Assembly (NCBI GenBank): GCA_051546255.1
Contig: CP128816.1
Span: 806,001-870,000, forward strand
DNA from: Meyerozyma guilliermondii
Taxonomy: Eukaryota
Reading direction: 5' to 3'
DNA length: 64,000 bases
Both the position numbers and the translations under genes were made by a program. Numbering within the stretch: position 1 is the first letter of the stretch; each line of letters begins with the position of its first letter. The notes below the pieces were generated by a model. The model had not been told where the DNA came from. It saw only the letters and a list, made by a program, of their open reading frames with translations, and searched no databases. Of this stretch, positions 6,112 through 56,117 are shown piece after piece.

Positions 6112-6161
6112 ACATTTCAAACCGTTTTTGACATTTCAAACCGTTTTTGACATTCCAAACC
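6112..6161. repeat. 19-bp tandem repeat, about 2.6 copies (acatttcaaaccgtttttg)
   Basis: Read directly at 6112-6130, 6131-6149 and partially 6150-6161. Confidence 0.8.
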
Positions 6162-6301
6162 TTGTTCCAGAACGAGCTATGGAGCTTATCAGATTATCAG
6201 CTAAACAACCAGAGCTTCAAAGATTTTTAGTCTGGAATCAAAATTGTTTTCATGAACGGTTGCAATTACTGAACGCTTTCGCTTCTTTATTACATTACTA
6301 T

Positions 6302-8041: not shown

Positions 8042-8110
8042 TGTGCCGTGGATTGTATTCCACGACTTTTTGGTGCCTTTTTATCTTTGCGCATACTCGG
8101 AAGCAATATT

Positions 8111-8120
8111 TTTGTGGGGT
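8111..8120. promoter_or_regulatory. Mig1/CreA-type glucose-repression site (TTTGTGGGGT) upstream of permease 1
   Basis: AT-rich flank plus GTGGGG; identical 10-mer at 11194-11203 and 14221-14230. Confidence 0.6.
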
Positions 8121-9341: not shown

Positions 9342-11099
9342 CTAAACCTTCTCATGGTGAGTGGTGGTGGCATTGCTGTCCACCAACACCTCGTGGTGTT
9401 GAACGGCTGCCTTAATACCTTCGTCTCCAAGTGCCTCCATCATAGTTCCAACATTGAAAGTTTCCATTTCGGTGGACTTGAACTTACGAGCACCAATCTT
9501 GTGCTCGAACAAAGCGTCCAAATCAGCAAAAGTCTTACCCTTAGTTTCAGGTAACTCGAACCAACACCATACAGCCGAACATAAAGCAAACCCAGCCCAG
9601 AAGAATCCAGTCTTGGCCTTCCAGTTCCACGACTCGGGGTTCAACATGTGAGGAGTGATCACAGCCACGATAATACCAGCAATGTTGTATGCGTTTCTAG
9701 CAATAATGACGGTTTTAGTTCTCAATCTCACCGATGGAATTTCCGCAACAATACAGTAACAAAGAGGACCCACACCCAAATCATAGACAAACGTGAGGAC
9801 CCACAACATGACACCCACTCCCCAAGATGCTGATGATGAGCTGGAACATCCAAGACCACCCACAATAAGCAAAATCACACATTGGGTGCACAAACCGTAA
9901 AAGTAAATGGTAAATCTGCCAAAGGCACGAGCCAAGAACCACGAGCCAAAAGTTCCAATGACTCCAAAAACAGACTGGATGATGGTAAATGTGAACGCCA
10001 TGTTGGTTGCAAGACCTGCTTGCGTGTAAAAGTACGTCGAGTAACCCATCAATGCTGAACCGGTGATATTTTGAATCACCCAAGTGAGAGCAGCAACTCT
10101 TGTTCTGCGGAAATCCCTTCCTCTGAAGCATTCAATATAGGAAGCACTGGCACTGATTGCAAATTCTTTCTCGACGGTCAATTGCATTTTGTTCACCATG
10201 GCCTCGGCCAAGATATCTGTGTCTGGAAGATGTTCGTTGGCACTGATAAGTCTGCGAAGAGAGTGCTTGGCCTGGTCAAGACGGCCCTTTTTGACAAGCC
10301 ACCATGGAGATTCTGGAGCCAAAAAGATACCAATCATGATCGGAACGGGCCAAATCCACTGGATAGCAAATGGAATCCGGTAAGAATCGTTAGCAGTGGA
10401 ATCGACATAAGACTTCAACACTCCAGCAGAAATCAATTGACCGAAAACCCAACACACATTGACATAAGTTGTCAAATACACACGAAGAACCAAGGGACAA
10501 ACCTCACAAGCGTACGAAACCGTCAAGGTTTGAAATACACCCCACGGAAGACCCAATAATAACTCTCCAGCGACCAACATTCCGATACTCAGGGCAAAGA
10601 AAACAATGAAAATCAACCCAATAACCAACAACAAAGACCCAATTAATGTCCATCTGTAACCAATCCGGTCGGCAACTATACCGGCTGCAAATAATCCAAT
10701 GATCTCTCCCACATTGGCACACATACTCAAGGTGGTTTGCCATTTGGTGTCAAGCTGGTAACTGTCGGAACCGGCATCGTAATGGCCATACTTTTTATTA
10801 AAGGAAGGAAATGCGTAGAAAGACGCAATAAGATTGAGATCGTAACCTTCCATAATCAAAGCCGACGATAAAACAATCGACCAAGCGGCAGCTTTGGGAA
10901 ACGTTTTGAGCCCCTCGCCCAAAGGCATCGTCTTCTCTTTATTTTCATTTTCCTTGGCTTCATTGGACATGTCCAAGAATTTTGCCAAGTAATCGTTCAT
11001 CTCCACCTGGAGCGAGTCCTCGGTGTCCTTGCGAGTCACCTCTTCCTCGATTCCGATAGCTTTGTCTTTCTTGTTAACATCTTCGACGTACCTAGACAT
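9342..11099 (-). CDS. Maltose/alpha-glucoside:H+ symporter, copy 2
   Basis: 585 aa; same motifs, colinear with copy 1. Confidence 0.95.
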   Translation of the reverse strand: MSRYVEDVNKKDKAIGIEEEVTRKDTEDSLQVEMNDYLAKFLDMSNEAKENENKEKTMPLGEGLKTFPKAAAWSIVLSSALIMEGYDLNLIASFYAFPSFNKKYGHYDAGSDSYQLDTKWQTTLSMCANVGEIIGLFAAGIVADRIGYRWTLIGSLLLVIGLIFIVFFALSIGMLVAGELLLGLPWGVFQTLTVSYACEVCPLVLRVYLTTYVNVCWVFGQLISAGVLKSYVDSTANDSYRIPFAIQWIWPVPIMIGIFLAPESPWWLVKKGRLDQAKHSLRRLISANEHLPDTDILAEAMVNKMQLTVEKEFAISASASYIECFRGRDFRRTRVAALTWVIQNITGSALMGYSTYFYTQAGLATNMAFTFTIIQSVFGVIGTFGSWFLARAFGRFTIYFYGLCTQCVILLIVGGLGCSSSSSASWGVGVMLWVLTFVYDLGVGPLCYCIVAEIPSVRLRTKTVIIARNAYNIAGIIVAVITPHMLNPESWNWKAKTGFFWAGFALCSAVWCWFELPETKGKTFADLDALFEHKIGARKFKSTEMETFNVGTMMEALGDEGIKAAVQHHEVLVDSNATTTHHEKV

Positions 11100-11193
11100 G
11101 ACTGAAGATACTACAACATGAAGAAAGTCTGGAGCTATTTATGTTTCCCATGAATCCTTGCCAGTCGTATACCGTTTACCATGCGTGAGGCTG

Positions 11194-11203
11194 TTTGTGG
11201 GGT
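11194..11203. promoter_or_regulatory. Mig1-type site (TTTGTGGGGT) upstream of permease 2
   Basis: Same 10-mer, about 95 bp upstream of the ATG. Confidence 0.55.
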
Positions 11204-12418
11204 ACATATTAGGGCCCTGCGGAGGTGATGCGGGGAGTTGCGTCCTCTTGCATGACGACCCAAATTCACTAGCGACCAAAAACCTTCTGGAAGTCCAAGA
11301 AAAATGGTGCCACTTGGAAGTAGTGAGTTACAGCATGGTGGTAGATGCGTGGCGAATCAACCGTGCTATTTTGTCCAAAAAATATGCCACTCGAAAACAT
11401 TCTACCGGATTAATGTTGCAGCCATTAACTGTCAAAGTTTGCGACAGGGTACCTTATTCTTATTTTTATGCGCGTTTCTGCCTTGCATTGCAGATTGTTC
11501 CCGTTGGGTCAAGTACGATGGAATTCCGGTTAGGTTCGCCTTCAACGGTAAATGTTACGAACTAAGGGTCCCCGCTGCAATTGAGTGGACAAATGGATAG
11601 GAAAGTGACCGGAACGAACGGCAGAAGTCAATTGGCACGAGTACGTAAACTATGGGAAGTGCGGATTAATTGACGCACTATTATGTTATCAAGCAACATT
11701 ACTCGGTCCAGCGGTTCAATAGAAGCATCCAGCTTCTACTAGGCTCTATCCAATATAACCCATTGTGCACGAGCTCTCCGTACCGGACGAAAACCGATTT
11801 CGGCTTCGGCGTAACCTATGTCAGATCATCAGCACGCCAGCGACGCAAAGATTGGCGCAGGTGAAACTCGCTATCATCTCGCAGGAACTGTCGTGTAATG
11901 CAGATCTGCTGTCGAAGCTGCATTGGTCGCATAAGGTCATTTCCTCGGCGCGAGGCATAGAAGCAATTTGCCGAAGATTGGCCAGACATTACGAGGGCCC
12001 TTACTACGGCAATCACGGAAGAAGTGTATCTTGATTATCGCTGTAAATCTCGCCGAAAACAGGTCTTCCAGAAGCACCCTCCCCACATTATTTTTTACGT
12101 GCGGCGCTCCGTCCGCATCCACTACATATTGGCGAGCATTTTGGGGCAGATGCATGCGGAGGCAAAAACTTTAATTAGAATACGGTGCGGCTGGTTAACT
12201 TTCGAGGCGGACCATTTGTTGAATCCCGAGTTTTAGGCGAGTCCGTATCGAGTGACGATCTTGGTTTAGTTGCTGCCCCACACCTTTTTGGCTGCAAACC
12301 GCTGCGGTTTCATGTCCGTGACGGCTCGTTCCGAGGCTTGAGTGTCAAGCCAAACCGAACGCCCGCTTCGTGCTTTCCACTTTCCAGTGACGACTTTGGC
12401 TAAAATCCAATTTCAGGG

Positions 12419-14143
12419 TTACACCTTTTCAGTTTCCGGGTTTTCGTGGTGCTTCACCACCGCCTTGATACCTTCTTCTCCAAGATTTTCCATCATTCTT
12501 CCGACGTCAAAAGTTGCCAATTCGGTACTCTTGAACTTTCTGCTGGCAATTTTGTTCTCGAACAAGGCATCCAAGTCGGCAAAAGTCTTGTTTTTCGTTT
12601 CAGGCAAATCAAACCAGCACCAGATAAGTCCAGCCAATGCAAATCCGGCCCAGAAAAATCCAGTTTTAGCCTTCCAATTCCATGCTTCTGGATTAAGCAT
12701 CTGTGGGGTTATCACCGCAATTACAATGCCGGCAACATTGTAGGCATTTCTTGCAATAATCAAAGTTTTTGTCCGCAATTTCACCGACGGCATTTCGGCA
12801 ACGATACAGTAACATAAAGGGCCCACGCTGGAATTATAGACAAGTGTGAACACTAGAAGCATACTGCCAATTCCCCATGAAGCATTTTTGTCGGCAGAAC
12901 ATCCAAGAGCTCCAACTATGACCAAAATTACAAATTGGGTGCACAATCCAGAAAAATAAATGGTAAATCTTCCAGCATTTTTAGCCAAAAACCACGATTG
13001 AATGCACCCGACAATCCCAAGAACATACTGGATAATGGTGAAGGTGAAAGCCATACTTGGTGCAAGTCCTGCTTGCGTATAAAAGTATGCTGAGTAGCCC
13101 ATCAATGCTGAGCCTGTAATGTTCTGAAACACCCAAACTCCAACCGCTATTCTTGTTCTTCGGAAATCAGGTCCTTTGAAGCAGTCCCAATAAGTGGCTT
13201 CGTTTTTGGAGGTTCTTTCACTTTCCACAGTCAATTGCATTTTGTTCACCATTGCAACTGTCATTACTGACTTATCGGGGAGATGACTATTCTCTGTGAG
13301 AAGCCTATTGACCGACTTTTTGGCGCTTTCAAGTCGACCTTTTTTCACCAACCACCATGGAGATTCGGGTGCCAAAAAAATTCCAATCATGATAGGAATT
13401 GGCCATGCCCATTGAAGAGCGAACGGAATTCGAAAAGACCACTCAGACTTTGAGTTCACAAGCGCCCGTAATATTCCAGCAGATATAAGTTGTCCGAATA
13501 CCCAGCAAACATTGACATAAGTTGTCAAGTAGACTCGAAGAACCATTGGACAAACTTCGGAGGCATATGAAATCGACAATGTCTGAAATGCTCCCCAAGG
13601 AATCCCCAAAAGTAATTCGCCAGCAACCAACATTTGCACATTCTGAGCAAAGAACACAATAAAAATGAACCCAATTACCATTGCCAAGGCTCCAATTAAT
13701 GTCTTCCGATACCCAATGCGATCTGCTATTATACCTGCGATGAACAAACCAATAAATTCTCCGACGTATACACTCAAACTCAAGGTGGTTTGCCTTTTCG
13801 CCTCGAGGCCCCAGCTGTCGCTTTCAGGGTAATAAGTACCAAATTTCTTCTGAAACGCTGGAAACGTGAAAAATGAGTTGATGAGATTGGTGTCGAATCC
13901 TTCCATTATCAACGCCGACGACAAAACTACCGACCAGAATGCTGCCTTGGGAAACGTCTTGATGCTTTCAGACAAAGGCATGCTTCTTTCTTTGGAATCG
14001 TTATCTTTGGCTTCATTAGACAAGTCCAAAAATTTGGCCAAAAAGTCATCAACTTCATCCCGGATGGAACTATCCATGGATTTTTTTTGGGTAGGTTTTA
14101 CATTTTTATTGGACGCAGCGTCTTCTTCAAAGAAGCCACTCAT
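12419..14143 (-). CDS. Maltose/alpha-glucoside:H+ symporter, copy 3 (more diverged)
   Basis: Same family motifs; first ATG at 14143; divergent from the maltase as in canonical MAL loci. Confidence 0.95.
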   Translation of the reverse strand: MSGFFEEDAASNKNVKPTQKKSMDSSIRDEVDDFLAKFLDLSNEAKDNDSKERSMPLSESIKTFPKAAFWSVVLSSALIMEGFDTNLINSFFTFPAFQKKFGTYYPESDSWGLEAKRQTTLSLSVYVGEFIGLFIAGIIADRIGYRKTLIGALAMVIGFIFIVFFAQNVQMLVAGELLLGIPWGAFQTLSISYASEVCPMVLRVYLTTYVNVCWVFGQLISAGILRALVNSKSEWSFRIPFALQWAWPIPIMIGIFLAPESPWWLVKKGRLESAKKSVNRLLTENSHLPDKSVMTVAMVNKMQLTVESERTSKNEATYWDCFKGPDFRRTRIAVGVWVFQNITGSALMGYSAYFYTQAGLAPSMAFTFTIIQYVLGIVGCIQSWFLAKNAGRFTIYFSGLCTQFVILVIVGALGCSADKNASWGIGSMLLVFTLVYNSSVGPLCYCIVAEMPSVKLRTKTLIIARNAYNVAGIVIAVITPQMLNPEAWNWKAKTGFFWAGFALAGLIWCWFDLPETKNKTFADLDALFENKIASRKFKSTELATFDVGRMMENLGEEGIKAVVKHHENPETEKV

Positions 14144-14207
14144 CTCCAGCACAATCTGTGCCTGAGTTTGTCGGCGGAGTCTATCTTTTATGTTCGCAAA
14201 ATGAAAA

Positions 14208-14230
14208 TTTACGCGGGGCGTTTGTGGGGT
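14208..14230. promoter_or_regulatory. Tandem Mig1-type sites (GCGGGG, GTGGGG) upstream of permease 3
   Basis: tttacgcggggcgtttgtggggt. Confidence 0.6.
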
Positions 14231-15523
14231 ACTTTTCCATTATGGATGCGAAATTATTGCGAGGCATCATGTGGCTCTCAAGGGCCCTTAAAATAAGCTA
14301 CGGAGCTCAATCAAGTCGTGGTGTGATCTATATGAGCCACCGAGTTTGGCTATATGTTCATTGCATGATTTTGAACGGTTACTTCGGTTGAATGTCTGAT
14401 CAAAAATCTCATCGGAAAAACTCACTTCAGAAAATCGGAACAACTTCGATCTCGGAATCAGTACTGTTTATGCATAATTGTGTCATTCTGATTCTGGCGT
14501 GATTGCTATGAGGTTTTGAAGGTTATTATGGAGATAGGTTCATTGTTTAACATGCTAAGAAAACAATATGAAGACTGCACTAATGCTTCCCCGCAAAAAA
14601 TTGTTGAAATCGAGAATAAGAACGGAAAGCTTACCATTTCAGTTAAGCACTTTTAACAAAATTACGACTTTCAGTTTTAAGCTTGGTCGGAATTTGACTC
14701 TCAGTTTAAACTTGGTTGGAGTTTGACACTTAGTTCCCTGTGTTCGAATTTAGACGTCAATGCGACCAATTGCAACAACTTCCAATTGAATCGTTGGAAC
14801 TCTTCTAACATATCTTGTCCCCTAGCGCTCTTTTAGTACCCTGATGTCTATTTCTAGGCTGTTGCTTTTTCTTTGCAAATTTGAGTTTTCGCCAATTTGC
14901 AGCCATTCTCTGAACAGTATCAAACTCGTAAATTTCTTCTTCGCGATTCAAACGATGGAGGAAACGATCACTCTTTATTCGTATTCATTTGTAGCTGTTC
15001 TGTAAAGTTTGAATTTCAGATAATCTTGAAGAACGACGCAGAATTGATGAGAAATTTCAAAATTGGAGAATGAAGTAAAATGACAAAATTACAAGAAATA
15101 ATTTACTATGAAGTGTAGTTCTGAGGGTGGAATAGTAATAGTTAAGAGTGACAACAGAGAGTATTGCTGTAGTAGATTTTGAAGCGACAGACGCACTAAA
15201 CTAATGTTTTTGCAAGTCTACATTTCTTTCATGTAAGCACAATTTGCAATTAGTATTAATACTCTACTTGGCAGGAACCCCACCCTCGCCCCACTATGAT
15301 TGACAGGTCCCCCACCAGCCAACTTCCGATAATCTTAACGGTGATTTACGGCAATTTACTCGGATGGACTTTTCCTGGTTACATAGGTCTCTCGCGAGTG
15401 GATCCCCGCATTCGCCGCGGAAAAACGATGTGCGTAATGCACTCCACATTATGCAGCGGAATAAATATTCTTTGCGCGCGCAGGAATAAAAGCCACCCGA
15501 GTGAGGGACATTAATTTGCAATC

Positions 15524-17227
15524 ATGACAATTAACGCTGAACCTTGGTGGAAAACTGCCACAGTATACCAGATCTGGCCCGCTTCGTACAAGGATTCCAA
15601 TGGAGACGGTTTTGGAGATCTTCAAGGTATTATTTCAGAACTTGACTATGTTAAGTCTCTCGGAGTGGATGTGATTTGGCTTTCTCCAATGTACGATTCA
15701 CCCCAAGATGATATGGGATACGATATTTCCAACTACAATGCCATTTACCCCAAGTATGGTACTATGAAGGACATGGATCAATTAATTGACCAGGTCCGTA
15801 GTCGGGGCATGAAGCTCGTTCTTGACCTTGTGGTGAACCATACCAGTAGTGAGCATGAATGGTTCAAAGAATCAAGATCTTCCAAGGACAATCCCAAGAG
15901 AAACTGGTACATCTGGAAGCCTCCCAAGTATGACGAGCAAGGAAATAGACAGCCTCCAAATAACTGGAAATCTTGTTTCTCCGGTTCCGCATGGGAATGG
16001 GATGAACATACCCAAGAATATTATCTTCGGTTATTTGCAGCCACTCAGCCAGACCTCAATTGGGAGTGTGAGGAGACCAGGGAGGCCATTTATGAGTATG
16101 CTATGAAGTTTTGGTACGAAAAAGGTGTGGATGGGTTCAGAATCGATGTCGCAGCTTTATACTCCAAAGTTCAAACTTTTGAAGATGCACCAATTGTGGA
16201 CCACACGCAAAAGTGGCAGCCTTTCGGAAGCTTGTGTCTGAATGGTCCTCGTATCCACGAGTTCCACAAGGAAATGTATAAGAAAGTGACCAGCCATTAC
16301 GACGTTATGACGGTTGGAGAGGTGGGCCATTGCAGCCGTGAAGAAGCACTCAAATATGTTTCCGCTTCAGCCAACGAAATGAACTCGATTTTTCTCTTTG
16401 ATTTGGTCGAAGTGGGTGTCAAGGGACTTGGTAGGTACGATTTTGCTGGGTGGAATTTGGACGACATGAGAAAAGCCGTGAAGAATATGAGTGGTTTCGC
16501 AGAAGGAACCGATGCTTGGGCCACTGCTTTCTCTGAAAACCACGACCAACCTCGTTCAGTTTCTCGGTTTGGTACTGACAAGAACCCCAAGGGCCACAAT
16601 AAGTCCGCTAAACTCTTGGCACAAATGTTAAGCTCGCTTTCTGGAACCTTGTACATCTACCAAGGTCAGGAAATTGGAATGACAAATCTTCCACGGTCAT
16701 GGCCCATTTCTGAGTACAAGGATATCGAGACGTTGAACTACTACGAGGACTTTAAGCAGCGTATTGGCGACGATAAAGAAAAATTGGAAAAATTAATGGA
16801 CGTTGTTCAAATCATGGCCAGAGACCATGCCAGGTCTCCAGTGCAATGGGACAATTCCAAACACGGAGGATTCACCACAGGCGAGCCATGGATGCGTGTC
16901 AACGATAACTATCCCGAAATCAACGTTGCTTCGCAAGTTAACGATCCTTCGTCGGTTTTCAGTTTCTGGCAAAAATGTTTGAAAGTGAGAAAATCGCACT
17001 CTGAAACTCTCATTTTTGGAGACTTGAAAATTGTTGATAACGGCCACGAAAAACTCTTTATTTTCACCAAGGAAAACGGCAACAAAAAGGCTCTTGTTGC
17101 GTTGAACTTCTCCGAAGAAACCGTTCCATACGTTGCGGAAGAAGGTTACAACTTGGTGCTCACCAACTTTGACGAAAACTCCGACTCTCATTTGGCGCCC
17201 TACGAAGCTAGAACGTACATCAAATAG
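15524..17227 (+). CDS. MAL32: Alpha-glucosidase / maltase (GH13)
   Basis: WWK...YQIWPASYKDSNGDGFGD, DMGYDISNY, DLVVNHTS, GVDGFRIDV (catalytic Asp), VGEV, ENHDQPR, YQGQEIG, RDHARSPVQW. Confidence 0.95.
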   Translation: MTINAEPWWKTATVYQIWPASYKDSNGDGFGDLQGIISELDYVKSLGVDVIWLSPMYDSPQDDMGYDISNYNAIYPKYGTMKDMDQLIDQVRSRGMKLVLDLVVNHTSSEHEWFKESRSSKDNPKRNWYIWKPPKYDEQGNRQPPNNWKSCFSGSAWEWDEHTQEYYLRLFAATQPDLNWECEETREAIYEYAMKFWYEKGVDGFRIDVAALYSKVQTFEDAPIVDHTQKWQPFGSLCLNGPRIHEFHKEMYKKVTSHYDVMTVGEVGHCSREEALKYVSASANEMNSIFLFDLVEVGVKGLGRYDFAGWNLDDMRKAVKNMSGFAEGTDAWATAFSENHDQPRSVSRFGTDKNPKGHNKSAKLLAQMLSSLSGTLYIYQGQEIGMTNLPRSWPISEYKDIETLNYYEDFKQRIGDDKEKLEKLMDVVQIMARDHARSPVQWDNSKHGGFTTGEPWMRVNDNYPEINVASQVNDPSSVFSFWQKCLKVRKSHSETLIFGDLKIVDNGHEKLFIFTKENGNKKALVALNFSEETVPYVAEEGYNLVLTNFDENSDSHLAPYEARTYIK

Positions 17228-37267: not shown

Positions 37268-37440
37268 CGATGGAAAAGATGAAAATGAGATCAGTGAGTC
37301 TGGAGATGAAAAGTTCGCGATGAGAATAAAGATGGTGAGAATACAATGATAAGAATACAAATGATAAGAATACACACTATATTAAGATGATAAGATACAA
37401 TTTATTATGCAATGCTAGGCTATGCCGTCTACTTGGTGCT

Positions 37441-46491: not shown

Positions 46492-49400
46492 TCAATTAGA
46501 TTCCTGCATTCTCCTTCTTGAACCCAAGGAGCCAGTAGCTCCTAATTGAGATTCATCTTTGTTCAATTGTAACTCAAAAAAATCCTCTTCAATATCGCCA
46601 TCTTTGGAACCAAATCCGCCTCCACCGGGAGTTAATATTTTCACTCTGTCGCCTTTCCCGACTGTGATCGTATTTTTCCCGCCAAGGTAGACATTCCTTG
46701 TGGAAAAGGTGCCTGTTTCTTCGTTGTAGCTGTTCTTTATCCAAACGTTCCGTCCTTTTTGGCCATTTTCTCCTCCAGCCATACCATACGGTTCAAAAGT
46801 TCTCCTCTCCAGTAAACAGGTCACCGAAAGGTTAGGGTAGGTAAATTCAATTTCTCGAACGACACCGTCTCCACCACAGTGTCTACCCTGTCCACCCGAA
46901 TTTGTACGAATTCTGAAATCATGGACCACTACGGGATATCGCTTTTCGAAAACTTCAACATCTGTCATTCTGGTATTCGTGATGTGACACTGTACACCTG
47001 ATTGGCCATCCCATGTGTGTCCAGCACCAGCCCCACCAGCAATACTCTCGTAATATCCAAAGGATATGCTTTTTTCTTTATCATCAATGCCGAATGTTAA
47101 GTTGTTCAATGTACCTTGCGATGCTCCTGCAACTTTGAATGCTCGCAATATAACGTCAACAATTCTCTGAGAAGTTTCAACATTTCCGCCAACAACTGCT
47201 GCCTCGAATGAAGGATCAATAACGCTGCCTTCTCTTGTTAAAATGCTTATTGGTTTGAGACAGCCGTTGTTCAATGGAATCTCCATATTAATAAGTGTTC
47301 TGAGAACATAAAGCACGGCTGAATGAAGAATAGACTTCGGAGCATTCAAGTTGCCATATATTTCATCTCCAGTGCCACGAAAATCAAAAATGGCTGTACC
47401 TTCTTTCGAATCAATAGATATATCAAGACAAATTGGAGTTCCGTCATCTAGGTAATCGGTGGCACTTAATTTACGCCCCACGAACTTGCGCTCTGTCGAT
47501 CTCAAAAGATTCTTCACAGCAGTCTCAGCAACCTCTTGAATTCCTGACATGTACAAAGCAACCACCTCGTAACTGTACTCATCAGTGAGCTTCTTCAATA
47601 AAGTGAGACCTTTGTAGTTTGCAGAGACCTGCGCCTTCAAGTCAGATAAATTGTCAGACAAACATCTGGTTCCAGACGACCCTGGGTACTTAGCGGGCTC
47701 TTCAAGTAAAAGACGAGTCATTCCCACGTCATCAAACTGTCCCTCACTATAAAGTTTGTGGGTAATGATAGCTGCTCCTTCTTCGTATATGACCTTAGAA
47801 TTTGAGGGCATACTACCAGGTGAAATGGAGCCGATGTCAGCATGGTGTCCCCTCGAAGCTGCCCAAAATAAAGGAATTGCGGAATTGTCGACAAAAATAG
47901 GTGTAATAACAGTGATATCGGGAAGGTGAGTTCCACCGGCTTTCGGATGATTCGAAACGAAAACATCTCCAGGTTTGATATTTCCATCCCACAATCTAAT
48001 TTGGGCTTTGACTGCAAATGACATAGCACCAAGATGAATAGGTATATGCGGGGCATTTGCAATAAGGTCCCCATTCTTATCAAAGATTGCACAAGAAAAA
48101 TCCAACCGTTCTTTGATATTTGTCGAAATTGCAGTTTGCTCTAAAGTCTTGCCCATTTGTTCTGCAATAGACATGAACCTATGACCAAAAACCGATAACT
48201 GAACGGGATTCACAGTTGTCTTTGATATATTCGTATTCCTGATGTTTTCAACAGATAGCAAGATGTGTTCCCTCAATATAACACCCTCAGATTGCGGATC
48301 AAGCAAAACGGTTTGAGTATCATCTAAAATAATTGCTGGCCCGCGGACCAAGTTTCCACAACTCAAGTCATTCAAATGATACACTCCGATATCGAGCCAT
48401 CCATGCGCTTCGAAATAAGTCATTTGCCTCGAATGAGCATCAACTACATTTAATGATCCAGACAGCTTTAGTTGACGATACTCAGCAAACGGATTGTGAA
48501 CAGATCTTTTGCCAGTATGAACCTTTAAAAGGACTTGAATGTCTTGCACGAGCACTGCTCTATCTAATGTGAATCCAAACTCACGGTTGTGGCGTTCAAT
48601 GAATAAAACATCACAGTTATGTTTTTCACCCTTTGGAATAAGTAATTTTGAATCAGCCCCTTGATAGTGCATGTTCAAGTAAACCTCTAAGGTAGTATCA
48701 AACTCTGTGAGACCTTGCTCAGTATAATCTTCGAACGCCGCCTGTACTGCAGAAGATATAATTCTGTTGATATTTTCATGGCTCCCACTGTTATACTCAA
48801 ACGAAACAGGATGCTGTTTTTCGATCATGATATCTGCCAAACTAATACCATACGCAGATAATAATGAAGAATATTTGTGTAGTGCAATATGCTTGATTCC
48901 CAAATTACGTGCCAAAGCAACCGCAAACTGACCACCGGATCCCCCAAAACAGGCTAAATTGTGGTCTGATGGATTAAATCCTTTCGCTTCAGTTAAAGAA
49001 CGAATTGGTCTACTCATAGACTCAACTGCAACCTTCAAAAAGCCGGCAGCAACTTCTTCTGCTGAAAGTGGCGAGTCATTGGGTCTCTCAATATTGATTT
49101 TTTTGGTTAATTGATGCATAAGGTTAGCTGTAGCCTCTAAGCTCAACAGTTCGTTTTGTCCAGGTCCGAAAATCTTAGGAAAGTATCCTGGAATCAATCT
49201 ACCAAGAAATAAATTTGCATCTGTAACAGTTAAAGGTCCGCCTTTTCTGTAGCAAGCAGGACCGGGGTCTGATCCTGCTGATTCTGGACCAGATACAAAC
49301 ATTCCATTTCTCCAGAATAACATGCTACCACCGCCCGCAGCAACAGTTGAAATATCTAACTGTGGAGTCTGAAGGCTCACCTGGTTAACCACTGTTTCGT

Positions 49401-50436
49401 ATATGTGCTCAAAATTTTCGTCAAACCTGCTAACATCAGTTGAAGTTCCTCCTGCGTCAAAGCCAATGGTAGCCTTTCTTTCTTCGCTATCATAACAGGT
49501 CAAACCATAGCCAACTAAGCCACCGGCCGGGCCAGAAAGAATCGCTTTTAGTCCAGTAAATTTATACCATGGGCAAAGACCACCGTTGCTTTGCATGAAC
49601 AAAAGTTTATTTCCGAGCGAGTCGAGTCCGCCTTCAAATCCATGGCTGATACTTTTGATATACTCATGCAAAATTGGGCTCAAATAAGCGTCAGCTACTG
49701 TGGAAGAAGCTCGATTCACCATCCCAATCATTGGCTGAAGTTCATGAGATACAGAAACAGAGAATCCAAGTTTTCGACAGATGTCTGCAACCTTTTGTTC
49801 ATGAATAGGATAGACGAATGCATGCACAAAACAAATGGCAAAACAATCAACTGTTTTCCTCTCGTGTAAAGCTTCAAGCTGGTTTTCGATTTGCTCATAA
49901 TCTGGCTCCTGTAAAACTTTAATCAACTCGCCGGATGCTCCTCGTCTCACATTTTCGTCTTCTTCAACAACCAATTTTGATCCTCCACCTTCGCTAAATC
50001 CAGCTGGAGTGACTCTTTCATCAATCTCAAGTACTTCGCTGTATAGTTGATCAAACTTATGTGCGCTGAGATCAAATATATCTGGCCGAGTTTGGTTACC
50101 AATGGCTAAAACATCTTTAAACCCTTTGGAAGTAACTAAACAAACTTTCGCTCCCTTTCGTTCCAATAATGCGTTTGTGGCAACAGTAGTTCCCATACGC
50201 ACACTTTGGATATTGTCCAATTTCAACTTTTGTCCCTGGGGTATCTCATGGTTTTCAAACTTGGAGAGAACTCTTCTAATTCCTTCAGTGGGGGCATCGA
50301 GATAGTTTGCAGGATCTACTGAAAGAAGCTTGAAGACATAATCTTCATGCCCATCCAATTGGCCGATCACGTCGCAGAACGTTCCGCCTCTGTCAATAGA
50401 AATCTTGATTTTAGGTTCAAAATTGGACTTTGTCAT
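46492..50436 (-). CDS. OXP1: ATP-dependent 5-oxoprolinase / hydantoinase-family lactamase (fused A+B domains)
   Basis: DRGGTFCD, RMGTTVATNALLERKG, SGPAGG, HRFMSIAEQMG, NIKERLDFSCA, HLPDITV, GHHADIG, GGNVETSQR, TPGGGGFG; could be a paralog rather than the housekeeping OXP1. Confidence 0.88.
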   Translation of the reverse strand: MTKSNFEPKIKISIDRGGTFCDVIGQLDGHEDYVFKLLSVDPANYLDAPTEGIRRVLSKFENHEIPQGQKLKLDNIQSVRMGTTVATNALLERKGAKVCLVTSKGFKDVLAIGNQTRPDIFDLSAHKFDQLYSEVLEIDERVTPAGFSEGGGSKLVVEEDENVRRGASGELIKVLQEPDYEQIENQLEALHERKTVDCFAICFVHAFVYPIHEQKVADICRKLGFSVSVSHELQPMIGMVNRASSTVADAYLSPILHEYIKSISHGFEGGLDSLGNKLLFMQSNGGLCPWYKFTGLKAILSGPAGGLVGYGLTCYDSEERKATIGFDAGGTSTDVSRFDENFEHIYETVVNQVSLQTPQLDISTVAAGGGSMLFWRNGMFVSGPESAGSDPGPACYRKGGPLTVTDANLFLGRLIPGYFPKIFGPGQNELLSLEATANLMHQLTKKINIERPNDSPLSAEEVAAGFLKVAVESMSRPIRSLTEAKGFNPSDHNLACFGGSGGQFAVALARNLGIKHIALHKYSSLLSAYGISLADIMIEKQHPVSFEYNSGSHENINRIISSAVQAAFEDYTEQGLTEFDTTLEVYLNMHYQGADSKLLIPKGEKHNCDVLFIERHNREFGFTLDRAVLVQDIQVLLKVHTGKRSVHNPFAEYRQLKLSGSLNVVDAHSRQMTYFEAHGWLDIGVYHLNDLSCGNLVRGPAIILDDTQTVLLDPQSEGVILREHILLSVENIRNTNISKTTVNPVQLSVFGHRFMSIAEQMGKTLEQTAISTNIKERLDFSCAIFDKNGDLIANAPHIPIHLGAMSFAVKAQIRLWDGNIKPGDVFVSNHPKAGGTHLPDITVITPIFVDNSAIPLFWAASRGHHADIGSISPGSMPSNSKVIYEEGAAIITHKLYSEGQFDDVGMTRLLLEEPAKYPGSSGTRCLSDNLSDLKAQVSANYKGLTLLKKLTDEYSYEVVALYMSGIQEVAETAVKNLLRSTERKFVGRKLSATDYLDDGTPICLDISIDSKEGTAIFDFRGTGDEIYGNLNAPKSILHSAVLYVLRTLINMEIPLNNGCLKPISILTREGSVIDPSFEAAVVGGNVETSQRIVDVILRAFKVAGASQGTLNNLTFGIDDKEKSISFGYYESIAGGAGAGHTWDGQSGVQCHITNTRMTDVEVFEKRYPVVVHDFRIRTNSGGQGRHCGGDGVVREIEFTYPNLSVTCLLERRTFEPYGMAGGENGQKGRNVWIKNSYNEETGTFSTRNVYLGGKNTITVGKGDRVKILTPGGGGFGSKDGDIEEDFFELQLNKDESQLGATGSLGSRRRMQESN

Positions 50437-50819
50437 GAATGAGGATAACTTTCTTGAATTGCAATTGATTACAGAAGGCCCGCTTTAAATGGTATACGAA
50501 CATTACATTGACATGATAGATAGGAACCTCGGCATTGGAGTTTTTATCCGATCTTCTCTTAACGATAAGACAATCGAATTAACATACTTGAATGTATGGC
50601 TTATATGCTTATCATGCAACAATACTACTAGATCGGACAACTAGTTGGGGGTCCCGCTCTATATACAGGAAAGAACATCGGCTGCAAAAAAGACACTGAA
50701 TTTGATTGACATCTGATCGGAACTGTTGCCAAGCAAATGGATGCATTTGCCCAAATCTGCTCGATATAAGAGGCAGGATGTCTTGCGTTCTTGGTACAGA
50801 GATCATCTTGCAATTGAAT

Positions 50820-52115
50820 ATGTCAAATGAAGTCGAATGGAAACCATTGAACGTAATTGTACTAGGAGGTGGTATTGGGGGTTTGGCTTGTGCGGTTGCG
50901 ATGAGAAGAGCTGCACATCAAGTCACGGTGTATGAGCGATCAGACTTTTGTGGTGAGGTTGGAGCTGCTATATCTTGCGCATCCAATGGGGGTAAGTGGC
51001 TCCACGAATGGGGAATTGATATGGAAAAAACCAAACCGGTAATTTTGAAATCTTTGATCAAGCATCGTTGGAATGACGGCGAAGTGTTCGAAACTCTCGC
51101 TTTTGATGGATATGAGAAACACTTTGGTGTCCCCTATTATAATTTCCACAGAAAAGATATTCACAGCTCCCTTTATGACGCAGCTACGAATGTGAATCGC
51201 GACGGAACTCCTGCTCAAATAGTGCTCAATCATGAGGCTGTTGAAATTGATTATGAAACATGTTCTGTTACTTTTGAAAATGGAAAGACTGTTTCGGGAG
51301 ACATTATTCTAGCTGCTGATGGTATTAGAAGCCGGACGAAACCCCAGCTTGGAATTACGCCCGTCTTTGAAAAGGCCGATTCTTCTTGTATCCGAGTTTT
51401 GTACGACTCTGAAAAAGCAAAGCAATTAGGGTTACTCGATTTTGCTTCAAATGATGCCATTGAATTTTGGGGTACGAACGAAAATAAGATTGTTATGTCA
51501 CCTTGCGAAAACGGTAGAACTGTTTGCTGCTTGTGCTTTTACAAGTGTAGCGAAAAGTCTTACAACACCTTTAATCGTAAAGTTTCATTGGAGAGGCTCC
51601 TTGAAGTTCTCCCCGACCTTGACCCTCAACTATGTCAAATTTTTAAAGAATGTGGATACGAGATTAAAGAATGGGGTTTGTATATCCATGAACCTCTTCC
51701 TTACTTCTTCAAAGCAAGCAAGTCAGGAAAGAAGGGGGTAGCTCTTGTTGGTGACGCCGCTCATCCAATGATGCCGGATCAAGCCCAGGGTGCAGTTTCT
51801 GCTATTGAAGACGCAGGCTGTCTCGGAGAAGTCTTTTCTAAAGAGCATGATTTAAGTGTCGAAGAATCTCTCATGATCTATGAGCTGGTTAGAAAAGAGA
51901 GAGTAACTAAGATCCAAGATGCTTCTTTGAGAGCCAGAAGAAATTTGAATGAGCGAATGGGCTGGAACAAGGATTTGGCGAACCCTCACAAGCTATCTCT
52001 TGTAGAGGTATGTGGTTACGATATGAAGGATCACATCAAACAGGCTGTAAAGCTGATCAAGCAGAAGCAGTTTGTAACGTATTCAGCTGAACAATTTGTA
52101 CACATCCTTTCATAA
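50820..52115 (+). CDS. Group A FAD-dependent aromatic monooxygenase (salicylate / 6-hydroxynicotinate hydroxylase-like)
   Basis: GGGIGGL, ILAADGIRS, LVGDAAHPMMPDQAQGA..AIED; likely ATG at 50820. Confidence 0.9.
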   Translation: MSNEVEWKPLNVIVLGGGIGGLACAVAMRRAAHQVTVYERSDFCGEVGAAISCASNGGKWLHEWGIDMEKTKPVILKSLIKHRWNDGEVFETLAFDGYEKHFGVPYYNFHRKDIHSSLYDAATNVNRDGTPAQIVLNHEAVEIDYETCSVTFENGKTVSGDIILAADGIRSRTKPQLGITPVFEKADSSCIRVLYDSEKAKQLGLLDFASNDAIEFWGTNENKIVMSPCENGRTVCCLCFYKCSEKSYNTFNRKVSLERLLEVLPDLDPQLCQIFKECGYEIKEWGLYIHEPLPYFFKASKSGKKGVALVGDAAHPMMPDQAQGAVSAIEDAGCLGEVFSKEHDLSVEESLMIYELVRKERVTKIQDASLRARRNLNERMGWNKDLANPHKLSLVEVCGYDMKDHIKQAVKLIKQKQFVTYSAEQFVHILS

Positions 52116-52135
52116 GTATTCACTCCAATTATAAA

Positions 52136-54307
52136 TCATTTTTCAACAATAATTGCATCCAAATCGTCAAACAATTCGTTCAACAAATTTATGTCTTCTT
52201 CGTTATACTGGAAATTCAAAGGTGAAAAAGTATACCTGGCTCGAGATTCGGTGCTGAAACCTTGCACCCTTTGTGAAGATAATTGACCAATTATTTCGTC
52301 GTATCTGTTCGAAATACTTTGATTAATATCATGAAGTATTGCCTTTTCTTCACTGGTGTTATTTTTCATTCCCATACTGAAATCCAATTGAAATTCAATA
52401 AGTGCAAATCGATTCAAAATATTAATATAGGAGGACTGACCTCTCGACTGGAAAAGAACTTTCAAGGAGCTCAACAATTTTAAGATTTGCTTGAATTTAC
52501 CTTTGGCTATGAGATTTCCATGCAATCGAATTTCAATAAGTATATCCAACATTACTTCCAATTTGCGGATTAAACGCTGTGCCTCGAAGTTGCCCGTGGA
52601 GTTAAGTTCCTCATCAAGTTGAAGGATTAGACAAATGATAAGACTTACAGTTGAACTACATATGTAATCCAACTCAGTTATATCAAAGATGTTGAGTAGC
52701 CGTTTTCTGCGAAGAATTAGTAATATCTGTACGGATTTACTTGTAGATATCGCAAATGCTCTCAAGGCTTTTTGAACACCGTTAGGTAATGTCTTGATCA
52801 AGATATTGCTATTTTGAAACTTCAATGGGTCACGAAATGCTAGTATGGAAAACCTGGCTAGATGTAGCACAATTGGAACGGATGCAAGGTGAACATGATG
52901 ATAGTAGTTCAAGTGAATTCCAAGAACAAGCTTCTGAGATGGACTAGTAAAATTTGGAGAGCCAGGTTCCGTTGTACTCAACACTTTCTGCGTCAACTCA
53001 TTTATGTCCGTGAACTTTTGGCTCATCGCAGTCAACGCTTCAAGTGTCGATAAGATCGACTTCAAATAGTTCTTTGTATCCATCGCGGAACGCAGCGTAT
53101 ATACCTCGTGAACAATTCTCTCCGCTATTTTTGCTAGTTCGATATTGAACTCGGTAGAGCTTGAAATTGATTTTGGTATTTCGGTTTCGATTTCCTGTTC
53201 ATGAAGTAAAATGGGCTGGCCAATCCTACAACTGAGAAATCGGTTCAATGAATATGTAGACCAGAATAAATGCAGGTGGTCGAACCCTTCTTTGTTGAGT
53301 CGATTGGGGTACAATGACTTCTTATGAAGATTTAAAGCTATGCATAATTCCAAGGCATTCAAGGTCACCATTGCTGATCGGTTTTTCTTGTCAAAGCATC
53401 TCATGTACAATGCAACGAGTCCCAATAATTCTATCACTTCAAATGTCTCTGATGGATTGTGGTGAGAAATAGTTAATATCTGCATGGCCAGTGGTAGATA
53501 GGACATTACAAGCTTATATGGAGTTAGTCCCGGAATTTCCTTGGTAGCTAAGGACGAGCCGTTCAATTTATAGGCAAATATCAGCCCTAGCGCTGTTACC
53601 ATTAGCGTCTTGCAACCAAAATACTGATAGTCTACTCGAGCCGATGGGAGGCGTAGGTATCCGTTGCTTCCTGTACAATATCTTGTCACATCCCTCATGA
53701 ACTTGGATGGATCAAAGGTTAGAAATCCGTAGTCAACATTATCTAACATTAGCTGCAATGCTTCTTCCATTTCCTTTGAAGTGAGGGACGTAAGGTGATT
53801 CTCGATATCAAATTCGGTAGTGCTCATTCCCTTGGCAAACATGACTGAATCATAATTATCTTCCTCTACTAGGGAGGTAAAATTGGGCATAACATCAACT
53901 TCTGATAAGTTTTTCTTGAGATCATCATCAATACACCAATGTATGAGATTGTAACATACTAGCTCACTGGAACCTGATCCCAAAAATAGTGAAAGATTCA
54001 TTTTATTTTTCTCCATATTTTGGCTGTTCTCTGCTTCAAAGTAAGCAGGGAGGCTTGAAGTTTCTTGTGCACTTATGATCTCTTCTAGCTCGCGAATACG
54101 ACTCTGAAGAGCATGGATTTGTGTGTCCATTACACTTATTCTTCGTGGCCGTCGTGGGCGATTTTCGAACACACATGGCAGTTGGGAAACATTGCAATTA
54201 CGACATGGCTCAGTGCCACTACATTTCACCTTGCGTACACGGCAGCGGATGCATGCTTCACGAGATTTAAGGGGGCTACTAGCTTCATGTTCCATTAGCA
54301 GTGTCAT
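52136..54307 (-). CDS. Zn(II)2Cys6 transcription factor with Fungal_trans domain
   Basis: ACIRCRVRKVKCSGTEPCRNC...C; LNLHK...HLFWSTYSLNRFLS..IGQP. Confidence 0.9.
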   Translation of the reverse strand: MTLLMEHEASSPLKSREACIRCRVRKVKCSGTEPCRNCNVSQLPCVFENRPRRPRRISVMDTQIHALQSRIRELEEIISAQETSSLPAYFEAENSQNMEKNKMNLSLFLGSGSSELVCYNLIHWCIDDDLKKNLSEVDVMPNFTSLVEEDNYDSVMFAKGMSTTEFDIENHLTSLTSKEMEEALQLMLDNVDYGFLTFDPSKFMRDVTRYCTGSNGYLRLPSARVDYQYFGCKTLMVTALGLIFAYKLNGSSLATKEIPGLTPYKLVMSYLPLAMQILTISHHNPSETFEVIELLGLVALYMRCFDKKNRSAMVTLNALELCIALNLHKKSLYPNRLNKEGFDHLHLFWSTYSLNRFLSCRIGQPILLHEQEIETEIPKSISSSTEFNIELAKIAERIVHEVYTLRSAMDTKNYLKSILSTLEALTAMSQKFTDINELTQKVLSTTEPGSPNFTSPSQKLVLGIHLNYYHHVHLASVPIVLHLARFSILAFRDPLKFQNSNILIKTLPNGVQKALRAFAISTSKSVQILLILRRKRLLNIFDITELDYICSSTVSLIICLILQLDEELNSTGNFEAQRLIRKLEVMLDILIEIRLHGNLIAKGKFKQILKLLSSLKVLFQSRGQSSYINILNRFALIEFQLDFSMGMKNNTSEEKAILHDINQSISNRYDEIIGQLSSQRVQGFSTESRARYTFSPLNFQYNEEDINLLNELFDDLDAIIVEK

Positions 54308-54512
54308 GTTTGCATATCATCTGGGTTCCTAGGGTAACAATATGAAGCCTGCATAGTAATGCATAGATAAGGGTTCGGGATCATCAAATTTGTTCCGATC
54401 GCTGAACAACTTATCTGCCGGATTGGGTGCAAATTGCTATATCTGTAGCTGTAGTTACTTTGAAGGAGAATATAGATAAATAGCCGAAAATCCAAGCAGC
54501 TACCCACTAATC

Positions 54513-56117
54513 ATGTTTGGGAAAGAAGACCTGTCCGTTCCTGGAACAGTTTATATGGTTGACCTCGACGGTCTGCAAAGAGTTCAAGAAACCAATACTC
54601 ATGGGGCAAACGTTATATTAGTTCCACAACCAAGCGATGATCCGAACGATCCACTCAGATGGCTGACAAGAAAGAAACTTCTTCAATTTTGGTTTTTATT
54701 TTTGTGGGCTTTTATGCAAGGAGTTATTACGAACTGGACCGGCCCAGTGTTCAGTATTTGGATGGAAGAGCTACCTTGTACTCAGATGCAATTGAATATC
54801 GCCAGAGCTCTCATGCTATTATTCTTATGCATGGGTTGTCTCTTTTTGCAGCCTTTAGCCTTAAAATTAGGACGGAGAATGGTTTATGTTTGCTGCACGT
54901 TGGTGCAGATTGTGGTCTGCATCATAGGCTCCCAAATGAATTCAATCAAAGTCTTCTACTTGATGCAGATCCTCACGGGCATAGCCGCATCTCCAGGAGA
55001 CGCATTAGTGGAGATTTCAACAACAGATGTCTTTTTCCAGCATGAAAGGGCATCCAAATTGACGTGGTTCATTTTGGCGCTTTACGGAGGGTGTGATTTG
55101 GGACCGGTAGCTGCAGGATACATCGTTAGTAACCTATCGTGGAGGTGGTGCTATTGGATACAACTCATCATATTCTGTTGCATGCTTGTTCTTCAAATTT
55201 TGTTTATGGAAGATACAACGTTCTCCCGAATTGACGAGCACGATACCGCATCCTCTGAAGAGCCCATATTGGTTGAAACGGCTCTTAAGAACAATTACAA
55301 GGTCAGCGAGGACGATGTAGAAATCGACCGGCCTTTACGTACTTTTTGGCAAAGAAGGGCGCTTTGGGAATCAGAATATGGTGACCATCGACCCTATTTG
55401 GCCCTTCTTTTACGACCTTTCTTGCTTATAGGATTCCCTGGAATTATTTGGAGTGGTCTTGTTTACGGTGCCCAGATGTTTTGGTTATCACTTTTAGCGG
55501 TTACCCAGTCTGCATTCTACTCGGCACCACCATACAATTTCAGCGAAGCAAGCGTTGGCTTGACAAATGTTGGAGCGTTCGTGGGAGTGCTTATCGGGAT
55601 GTTTTATGGCGGACCTTTTGTGGACTATTTAACAATCAAGCTTACCCAGAGAAACAACGGAGTTATGGAGCCAGAATTCCGATTATGGGCTATGGCAATT
55701 CCCACAGTATTTAATGCCGGTGGGTTACTCGCATATGGCTTGAGCATCTACTATGGAGCACATTGGTTCGTTTCAGTTGGAATTGGCCAGGCTCTTCTAG
55801 GATTCTCGATGTCCTCTTCTGGAGGTATTTGCTTAACATACTCAGTGGATAGCACTCCTAATTTGGCTAAAGAAGCACTTGTGCTTATCTTGGTAATGAG
55901 AAATCTTATCGGAATGGGATTCACATTCGCAATTGGACCATGGCTCGACAAGTGCGGCGTTATGGAAACTACCTGCTTGATGTTTATGTTGAGCGTGTTG
56001 ATCAATGCTCCATTTATTTTGTTCTTAAAGTACGGGAAAAGCCTTAGGATCATGACCAAAGCAAGATATGAGCGCTATTCAGATCCACATCTTTCAATGG
56101 CACATGTTTTTAGATAA
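54513..56117 (+). CDS. MFS transporter, Hol1-like
   Basis: PGTV, ILVPQPSDDPNDPL.W, GRR.VY, DVFFQHERA, PPYNFS, NNGVMEPEFRL. Confidence 0.9.
   Translation: MFGKEDLSVPGTVYMVDLDGLQRVQETNTHGANVILVPQPSDDPNDPLRWLTRKKLLQFWFLFLWAFMQGVITNWTGPVFSIWMEELPCTQMQLNIARALMLLFLCMGCLFLQPLALKLGRRMVYVCCTLVQIVVCIIGSQMNSIKVFYLMQILTGIAASPGDALVEISTTDVFFQHERASKLTWFILALYGGCDLGPVAAGYIVSNLSWRWCYWIQLIIFCCMLVLQILFMEDTTFSRIDEHDTASSEEPILVETALKNNYKVSEDDVEIDRPLRTFWQRRALWESEYGDHRPYLALLLRPFLLIGFPGIIWSGLVYGAQMFWLSLLAVTQSAFYSAPPYNFSEASVGLTNVGAFVGVLIGMFYGGPFVDYLTIKLTQRNNGVMEPEFRLWAMAIPTVFNAGGLLAYGLSIYYGAHWFVSVGIGQALLGFSMSSSGGICLTYSVDSTPNLAKEALVLILVMRNLIGMGFTFAIGPWLDKCGVMETTCLMFMLSVLINAPFILFLKYGKSLRIMTKARYERYSDPHLSMAHVFR

Follow-up and report, generated by a model that had tools for sequence, protein, structure and literature searches.

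An OXP1-type 5-oxoprolinase gene and three adjoining accessory genes in Meyerozyma guilliermondii may form a lineage-specific mosaic neighbourhood

Four adjacent genes at positions 46492-56117 of a 64-kb window of Meyerozyma guilliermondii DNA (assembly GCA_051546255.1, contig CP128816.1, positions 806,001 to 870,000; the window is the whole stretch of 64,000 nucleotides that was analysed) encode a 5-oxoprolinase, a flavin monooxygenase, a zinc-cluster regulator and a transporter of the major facilitator superfamily (MFS). With moderate confidence, at about an even chance, we read this locus as a lineage-specific mosaic neighbourhood, in which an ordinary 5-oxoprolinase gene lies beside three accessory genes probably with nitrogen control in common, and not as one pathway. 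A single pathway, running from import through ring hydroxylation to ATP-dependent lactam opening, had been proposed in an initial annotation of the window. This proposal is poorly supported: the lactam-opening enzyme is of the OXP1 type, the distribution of the monooxygenase is patchy, the transporter is of the HOL1 family, and the group is without the ring reductase or dioxygenase of known N-heteroaromatic routes, as described for hxn (PMC8478523).

The open reading frames (ORFs) of the window were listed under the standard genetic code, and translation table 12 was used for homolog look-ups. Because CTG codons are scarce (14 across the four genes) and the closest relatives of all four proteins come from CTG-clade yeasts, table 12 is probably the right code for the locus. 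All four ORFs are intact and uninterrupted. They form two divergent pairs, the first made of the 5-oxoprolinase gene (46492-50436, reverse strand, 1314 aa) and the monooxygenase gene (50778-52115, forward strand, 445 aa as an ORF), the second of the regulator gene (52136-54307, reverse strand, 723 aa) and the transporter gene (54513-56117, forward strand, 534 aa). The intergenic gaps are 341, 20 and 205 bp; the 20-bp gap (52116-52135) separates the convergent stop codons of the monooxygenase and regulator genes. The arrangement described in the initial annotation, with its two divergent pairs and 20-bp stop-to-stop gap, was thus borne out by the ORF listing, and its four assignments (oxoprolinase-family lactamase, FAD monooxygenase, Zn2Cys6 transcription factor and MFS transporter) were confirmed by Pfam. 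The genes are physically adjacent, as are those of a catabolic gene cluster.

The 5-oxoprolinase carries the Hydant_A_N, Hydantoinase_A, Hydant_A_C and Hydantoinase_B domains, in that order, over residues 11-1277, all above the Pfam cut-off (670.6 bits for Hydantoinase_B, 306.2 bits for Hydantoinase_A and 31.7 bits, against a cut-off of 21, for Hydant_A_C). This fused hydantoinase A/B architecture, and a similar length, are shared with OXP1 (YKL215C) of S. cerevisiae and with OPLAH, and point to an OXP1-type, ATP-dependent 5-oxoprolinase. Homologs were taken from the best 120 of 8000 scored matches, all of them full-length fused enzymes at least 51% identical to the window protein. Within this set, proteins of D. 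hansenii, Scheffersomyces, Spathaspora, C. tropicalis, C. maltosa (where the protein is named OXP1), Lodderomyces, Y. tenuis, P. carsonii and Babjeviella are 60-66% identical to it, and the CTG-clade proteins that are named 5-oxoprolinase or OXP1 fall at 61-66%. A second group, at about 54-55%, consists of one further protein each of P. carsonii and Y. tenuis, plus one of M. farinosa, and homologs from Taphrinomycotina and Pezizomycotina follow at 51-54%. OXP1 of S. cerevisiae was not among the best 120 matches; nor was there, among these matches at 51% identity or more, a second named protein assignable to the same organism as the window.

In a quick tree of 28 rows, the window enzyme nests within a group of 17 CTG-clade rows (support 100) that includes D. 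hansenii, Scheffersomyces, Spathaspora, C. tropicalis, C. maltosa 'OXP1', Y. tenuis and P. carsonii and is annotated 5-oxoprolinase/OXP1. The proteins of the second group, one each from Y. tenuis, P. carsonii and M. farinosa, make up a paralog clade of three rows, also with support 100, that stands apart from the 17 rows. Gene trees had been suggested as a check in the initial annotation; this one places the lactamase with the OXP1 orthologs and away from the paralog trio. One member of the homolog set, P0086 (1294 aa), is labelled 'Kocuria palustris'; it is 61% identical to the window enzyme, nests among the yeast OXP1 orthologs and is probably yeast contamination in a bacterial assembly.

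Two blocks, D15-R16-G17-G18-T19-F20-x-D22 and D327-x-G329-G330-T331-S332-T333-D334, are invariant in the 28 homologs, the window protein included, as are hundreds of further positions. DxGGT-type blocks are nucleotide-binding, and the catalytic make-up of the enzyme is, as judged from these residues, intact. The best solved relatives are N-methylhydantoinase (7hk5, E 3.1e-104) and the caprolactamase subunits of 6yra; acetone and acetophenone carboxylases are also among the solved relatives. The simplest reading is that the 1314-aa protein would be the general 5-oxoprolinase of the organism, and not a spare lactamase.

If the four genes made up a pathway, their homologs might be expected to lie together elsewhere, and a failure to do so was the first observation that the initial annotation had named as speaking against its proposal. 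Linkage was judged from the accession numbers and scaffold membership of the best-scoring homologs. In Y. tenuis the monooxygenase (EGV64823) lies on a scaffold of 1,120,460 bp and the OXP1 ortholog (EGV66381) on one of 1,446,176 bp; in P. carsonii the two (PRCAT00004336001 and PRCAT00001131001) are on separate contigs. Thus, they are linked in neither of the two species in which this could be checked. The closest transporter homolog is on a different contig from the monooxygenase in all three checkable species (S. stipitis, Y. tenuis and P. carsonii), and in S. stipitis the regulator homolog (ABN66467) is 573 accessions away from the monooxygenase (ABN65894). Wherever their positions could be compared, in these few species, the homologs are not neighbours, and linkage of the four genes is not conserved in the species checked. 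We also noted that the monooxygenase and the oxoprolinase of the paralog clade are separated by 33 accessions in Y. tenuis and by 48 in P. carsonii, and that in M. farinosa a regulator homolog is 59 accessions away from this paralog (P0093, P0095 and P0096 with P0166, P0174 and P0422). These distances hint at a remnant of an old, loose synteny, and not at adjacency.

A wider survey gave the same picture. A metagenome scan with an alignment of 32 monooxygenase sequences returned 80 loci with stored flanks of up to 10 kb, and none of the 80 held a relative of any other member of the group within these flanks. The closer relatives of the monooxygenase (36-45% identical) are confined to seven of these loci (L001-L007), of which only L003 and L005 have long flanks. 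In L003 (4587-12313 of a fungal metagenome contig) a relative with 38% identity is accompanied by an indoleamine 2,3-dioxygenase (IDO) and by two fragments, one of a class-V aminotransferase and one of Fungal_trans, which looks like a tryptophan/kynurenine-type neighbourhood. The flanks of L005 encode an aldehyde dehydrogenase, AtuA and Mre11. In both loci the flanking genes are unrelated to those of the window locus. A scan of genome contigs with the single 5-oxoprolinase protein gave no match. Repeated with the 28-sequence alignment, it returned 80 loci, all on prokaryote or metagenome-assembled contigs (37-51% identity) and none on a yeast contig; no relative of the other three genes was found in the stored flanks, of up to 10 kb, of these fused oxoprolinases. 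The lack of association in the 160 loci is weak negative evidence, most of them holding distant relatives.

The monooxygenase matches FAD_binding_3 (45.5 bits against a cut-off of 22) as well as general FAD/NAD Rossmann families. Since its homologs measure about 415 aa, have their beginning near residue 15 and span about 91% of the ORF, the true start is probably the ATG at 50820, which would give a protein of about 431 aa. The glycines of the GxGxxG motif (G30, G32 and G35), the DG pair (D181 and G182) and D326 show no variation across 32 homologs, at least 90% of which also keep G325. GxGxxG, DG and GD are the fingerprints of group A flavoprotein monooxygenases, and the enzyme is a salicylate-hydroxylase-like member of this group. 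Among its best 120 matches, the named CTG-clade proteins come from Y. tenuis, P. carsonii, C. lusitaniae, M. bicuspidata and C. jaroonii (55-58% identity) and from S. stipitis (50%); next come many Penicillium and Aspergillus proteins automatically named salicylate hydroxylase (44-49%). For most of the species that carry an OXP1 ortholog no monooxygenase is found among these 120 matches, and as judged from them its distribution is patchy.

The best solved relatives of the monooxygenase are 4-hydroxybenzoate decarboxylase (8gsm, E 3.1e-41), decarboxylative vanillate 1-hydroxylase (8x38, 1.1e-38) and 8r2t (1.2e-35), all of them distant. Enzymes acting on N-heteroaromatic rings, 6-hydroxynicotinate 3-monooxygenase and 2-methyl-3-hydroxypyridine-5-carboxylate oxygenase, match far more weakly (E 1e-17 to 3e-19). 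Group A flavin monooxygenases and Zn2Cys6 activators of another CTG-clade yeast, C. parapsilosis, are found together in its 3-oxoadipate and gentisate clusters, which are reported to contain the monooxygenases MNX1 and MNX2 and the activators OTF1 and GTF1; Mnx1p catalyses the decarboxylation of 4-hydroxybenzoate (PMC8929692), and going by this account the enzyme of 8gsm would have the same activity. MFS hydroxybenzoate carriers have also been described in C. parapsilosis (PMC5566891). Unlike these clusters, the M. guilliermondii locus is without their dioxygenase, hydrolase and ring-cleavage genes, its transporter is of a different family, and its monooxygenase matches the solved enzymes distantly (E about 1e-41 to 1e-36).

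The transporter has the MFS_1 fold, and its nearest named homologs (54-57% identity, with several paralogs per species) are annotated as 'protein Hol1p' (C. anglica) or 'putative ion transporter'; on this basis it is HOL1-like, a transporter of the HOL1/DHA1 type. HOL1 proteins are reported to import polyamines and cationic drugs (10.1101/2024.09.20.614104).

The regulator combines Zn_clus and Fungal_trans domains, as in Gal4-type factors, and belongs to a small family: among 1.84 billion representatives it has 982 matches at E<=0.001 and 22 at E<=1e-30, and the best foreign match is 43% identical. Four of the ten best matches are named, those of M. farinosa, Suhomyces tanzawaensis, S. amazonensis and S. 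stipitis, all of the CTG clade. The S. stipitis relative is labelled 'positive regulator of PUT genes', and the DNA-binding zinc-cluster part is weakly closest to PUT3 (E 6e-4); the protein-atlas clusters give only a generic 'fungal transcription factor'. Within the 90% cluster of the regulator, a 719-aa form is found on 14, 6, 3 and 3 contigs and as some singles. A 464-aa form, ending after residue ~458, is found on 20 contigs, with three more truncated entries. The short form could be either a natural loss-of-function allele or the mark of a sister lineage. Its being common argues that the regulator is dispensable.

The two divergent pairs are separated by short promoters, at 50437-50819 (counted up to the likely start of the monooxygenase) and at 54308-54512. 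GATAAG, the canonical site of nitrogen-regulating GATA factors, is present twice in the first promoter (50564 on the forward and 50608 on the reverse strand) and twice in the second (54366 forward, 54410 reverse), in both cases 44 bp apart. At least two copies are found in 3 of the 24 intergenic regions of the window. Compared with the other intergenic DNA of the window, the Poisson probability of at least two copies is 0.018 for the first promoter and 0.0069 for the second, and the joint probability of two in each is about 1.2e-4. The third such region has three copies within 47 bp (37348-37394), in the 173-bp gap between an Ssu72-like and a POP1-like gene. Nitrogen control would not be expected of a POP1-like RNase P/MRP gene, and because this third region lies upstream of a housekeeping gene the motif is not specific. 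The nitrogen label that had been attached to the group thus gains some support from the paired sites in both promoters, but the multiple copies upstream of the POP1-like gene speak against taking them as diagnostic.

A second motif, GATCGGA, occurs three times in the first promoter (50547 on the reverse strand, 50631 and 50715 on the forward strand, successive copies being 84 bp apart) and once in the second (54394, reverse strand). The 64 kb contain seven copies; the four in the promoters, within a total of 546 bp, are all of the intergenic ones. The promoters also have the 9-mer GATCGGAAC in common, and in the first of them an inverted pair, TTATCCGATCT/AGATCGGACAA, flanks the GATAAG pair. 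No larger repeat unit that would explain the 84-bp spacing was found in the first promoter. Since GATCGGA had been spotted by eye, the fair test is the best 7-mer shared by the two promoters, a statistic chosen post hoc; its observed value is 4, which 118 of 1888 other intergenic pairs and 78 of 2000 shuffles also attain (about 0.04-0.06). Taken together, the motifs are no more than suggestive of shared control of the four genes. A Gtf1p-type site, GGA-N7-TCC, was dropped as a signal: it has one copy in the first promoter and occurs at an ordinary rate in the window (19 copies against 14.6 expected). No defined zinc-cluster site could be called either, the CGG-Nx-CCG pairs in both promoters being unequally spaced (15, 17 and 16 nt). 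Scans for bacterial-type promoters and terminators and for tRNA genes added no information on the locus.

What the analysis shows is the identity and layout of the genes, the orthology of the 5-oxoprolinase, the promoter motifs and, for the species checked, an absence of conserved linkage; the substrates, the targets of the regulator and nitrogen control are inferred, as follows. The OXP1-type enzyme would open 5-oxoproline (pyroglutamate) to glutamate at the expense of ATP, in the breakdown arm of the glutathione cycle, and in this lineage three accessory genes would have come to adjoin its gene. The monooxygenase most likely acts on a hydroxy-aromatic or hydroxy-heteroaromatic acid, which it would hydroxylate and perhaps decarboxylate. 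Targets of the regulator are most likely the divergent transporter gene and possibly the monooxygenase gene, and the HOL1-family carrier is predicted to import nitrogen-rich cations such as polyamines. Given the paired GATAAG sites in each of the divergent promoters, expression of the four genes is probably induced by a scarcity of good nitrogen sources, which would make the locus a nitrogen-responsive neighbourhood.

The main rival, which we regard as unlikely although it is the strongest competitor, is pure coincidence: four unrelated genes that happen to abut, with no shared regulation and with motifs that arose by chance. The frequency with which other intergenic pairs and shuffles reach the best-shared-7-mer value is consistent with it, as are the three GATAAG copies upstream of the POP1-like gene, the lack of conserved linkage in the species checked and the truncation of the regulator in many assemblies. 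Moreover, zinc-cluster regulators and MFS genes are abundant in yeasts, and as a rough expectation some adjacent pairs will form by chance. Coincidence does not account readily, however, for GATAAG pairs with identical 44-bp spacing in two short promoters, at the joint probability given above, nor for the confinement of all four intergenic GATCGGA copies to these same promoters.

Several observations weigh against the mosaic neighbourhood itself. The 5-oxoprolinase is more diverged from its orthologs than these are from one another (61-66% identity as compared with 64-81% among themselves), and its end branch in the quick tree is 0.73, against a median of 0.33. The monooxygenase is likewise 55-57% identical to orthologs that share 67-80% among themselves. 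The divergence of the two enzymes could reflect a joint functional change rather than a fast-evolving lineage; a fast lineage may, on the other hand, be the cause of both. The single copy of the 5-oxoprolinase is deduced from the best 120 matches and not from the genome, and the linkage check covers only two to three species and relies on the best-scoring homologs of multi-paralog families. GATCGGA, being common to both promoters, is a hint that the four genes have a single specific regulator, something not to be expected of a mosaic formed by chance. Finally, by analogy with a segment described in S. cerevisiae, sets of a regulator, an oxoprolinase and a permease seem to recur in yeasts (Region B; PMC13447093).

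Region B is the closest precedent for the locus. It is described as a segment of about 17 kb, gained by horizontal transfer from a distantly related yeast, that contains a STB4-like regulator, an OXP1-like 5-oxoprolinase, a TNA1-like permease, a flocculin and a second regulator; predicted GLN3 sites lie between its genes, and its function is reported as unknown (PMC13447093). Likened by composition, the two have in common a zinc-cluster-type regulator, a 5-oxoprolinase and an MFS permease side by side, and nitrogen-type sites in the intergenic DNA. As far as the published description of Region B goes, they differ in that Region B is without a monooxygenase, in that its permease is TNA1/nicotinate-like and that of the locus HOL1-like, and in that Region B is a mobile, acquired segment.

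These points are compatible with a reading that we consider improbable, in which, in this lineage, the only enzyme of the OXP1 type would have become part of a four-gene unit under nitrogen control, with a zinc-cluster regulator of its own that binds GATCGGA-type sites in both promoters. The 5-oxoprolinase and the monooxygenase, with their long branches, would then have shifted jointly to a lactam or hydroxy-heterocycle other than 5-oxoproline, or to the scavenging of external 5-oxoproline. In the scavenging case the HOL1-like carrier could be the yeast importer of 5-oxoproline, a transporter described as not known in yeast (PMC13398684).

The pathway proposed initially, a dedicated four-gene route of N-heterocycle import, ring hydroxylation, ATP-driven lactam opening and nitrogen release, is in our view also improbable. 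Its gene content and two divergent promoters fit, as do the GATAAG pairs and the GATCGGA copies common to both promoters, the long branches of both enzymes, and relatives that include N-methylhydantoinase and caprolactamase for the lactamase and the two N-heteroaromatic oxygenases named above (E 1e-17 to 3e-19) for the monooxygenase. Yet the lactamase is a conserved OXP1 ortholog, hydroxybenzoates and not N-heterocycles are the substrates of the monooxygenase's closest solved relatives, the transporter is of a cation/polyamine family, and there is neither conserved linkage in the species checked nor any association in the 160 other loci. The group is also without the reductase, dioxygenase, imidase and amidase that the fungal nicotinate route needs by the published account (PMC8478523).

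The latter comparison concerns the hxn regulon of A. nidulans. It is described as having AreA GATA sites, the salicylate-hydroxylase-like HxnX, MFS carriers, a specific regulator and bidirectional promoters, all of which have a counterpart of the same general kind at the locus, and as dependent on a molybdenum hydroxylase, reductases, a cyclic imidase and an amidase (PMC8478523), all of them missing from the locus. As described, the hxn regulon in turn is without an oxoprolinase, and hxn clusters are reported to be absent from Saccharomycetaceae and Debaryomycetaceae (PMC8478523), the latter absence counting further against an N-heterocycle route if the yeast belongs to that family. Identity with the hxn nicotinate cluster itself was rejected, as there are no hxnT-, hxnV- or hxnM-type genes with hxnR, only four families are present and the regulator is of the Zn2Cys6 type.

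In a variant of such a route, a HOL1-like carrier would import diamines or polyamines, which would be oxidised to a cyclic imine or a 2-pyrrolidinone-type lactam and opened by the oxoprolinase-type enzyme to an omega-amino acid, somewhat as with lamA and lamB. The product of lamA is oxoprolinase-like. In A. nidulans lamA and lamB are reported to form a lactam-catabolic pair under the pathway regulator AmdR (PMC8016842), and a LamB-type gene is not present at the window locus. This salvage route is very unlikely: the HOL1-family transporter (10.1101/2024.09.20.614104), the AmdR precedent and the nitrogen-type promoter sites would suit it, but the flavoenzyme is a group A aromatic hydroxylase and not an amine oxidase, the lactamase is an OXP1 ortholog, neither a LamB-type partner nor an aldehyde dehydrogenase is in the group, and nothing links the genes chemically. 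Neither this variant nor the N-heterocycle route has positive evidence behind it, and both are kept as low-probability possibilities.

In the literature, we found nothing that combined oxoprolinase, monooxygenase, 'gene cluster' and Zn2Cys6, or YKL215C and nitrogen catabolite repression. Two publications that bring together oxoprolinase, salicylate hydroxylase and yeast appeared, by title and abstract, unrelated to the locus.

The four genes are flanked immediately by genes for a DnaJ/zuotin-like protein and a class II tRNA synthetase, as identified with Pfam, and farther away by POP1, Ssu72 and PP2C. The placement among housekeeping genes given in the initial annotation is thus a fair description of the immediate flanks. 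The same window holds a MAL-type group at 670-17227, which resembles the maltose/alpha-glucoside loci of other yeasts. It comprises two regulators (670-2706, with Fungal_trans_2, and 3276-5174, with Zn_clus), three tandem sugar transporters (6302-8041, 9342-11099 and 12419-14143) and an alpha-amylase-family glucosidase (15524-17227). With a second such group inside the same 64 kb, neighbourhoods of a regulator, a transporter and an enzyme are not rare here.

Proteins identical or nearly identical to those encoded within 46492-54307 (P0005 and P0152) have been deposited under 'Naganishia cerealis' (QFC19_004413 and QFC19_004411, given as consecutive locus tags), the name of a basidiomycete. As every close relative is a CTG-clade ascomycete, this label is probably wrong, or the assembly contaminated, and the deposit is no independent evidence for the gene arrangement.

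If the mosaic neighbourhood is the correct reading, the locus calls for an ordinary annotation, that of an OXP1 ortholog beside three accessory genes, and would be a caution against pathways inferred from adjacency in compact yeast genomes. If instead the four genes cooperate, this would be a second case, Region B of wine yeasts being the first, in which a 5-oxoprolinase travels together with a regulator and a permease. The two would then point to a recurring yeast 'oxoprolinase + regulator + permease' module, and the locus would offer a possible handle on what such modules feed on and a possible route to how yeasts take up 5-oxoproline. The paired GATAAG sites and the repeated GATCGGA in two compact promoters provide a simple, testable regulatory hypothesis.

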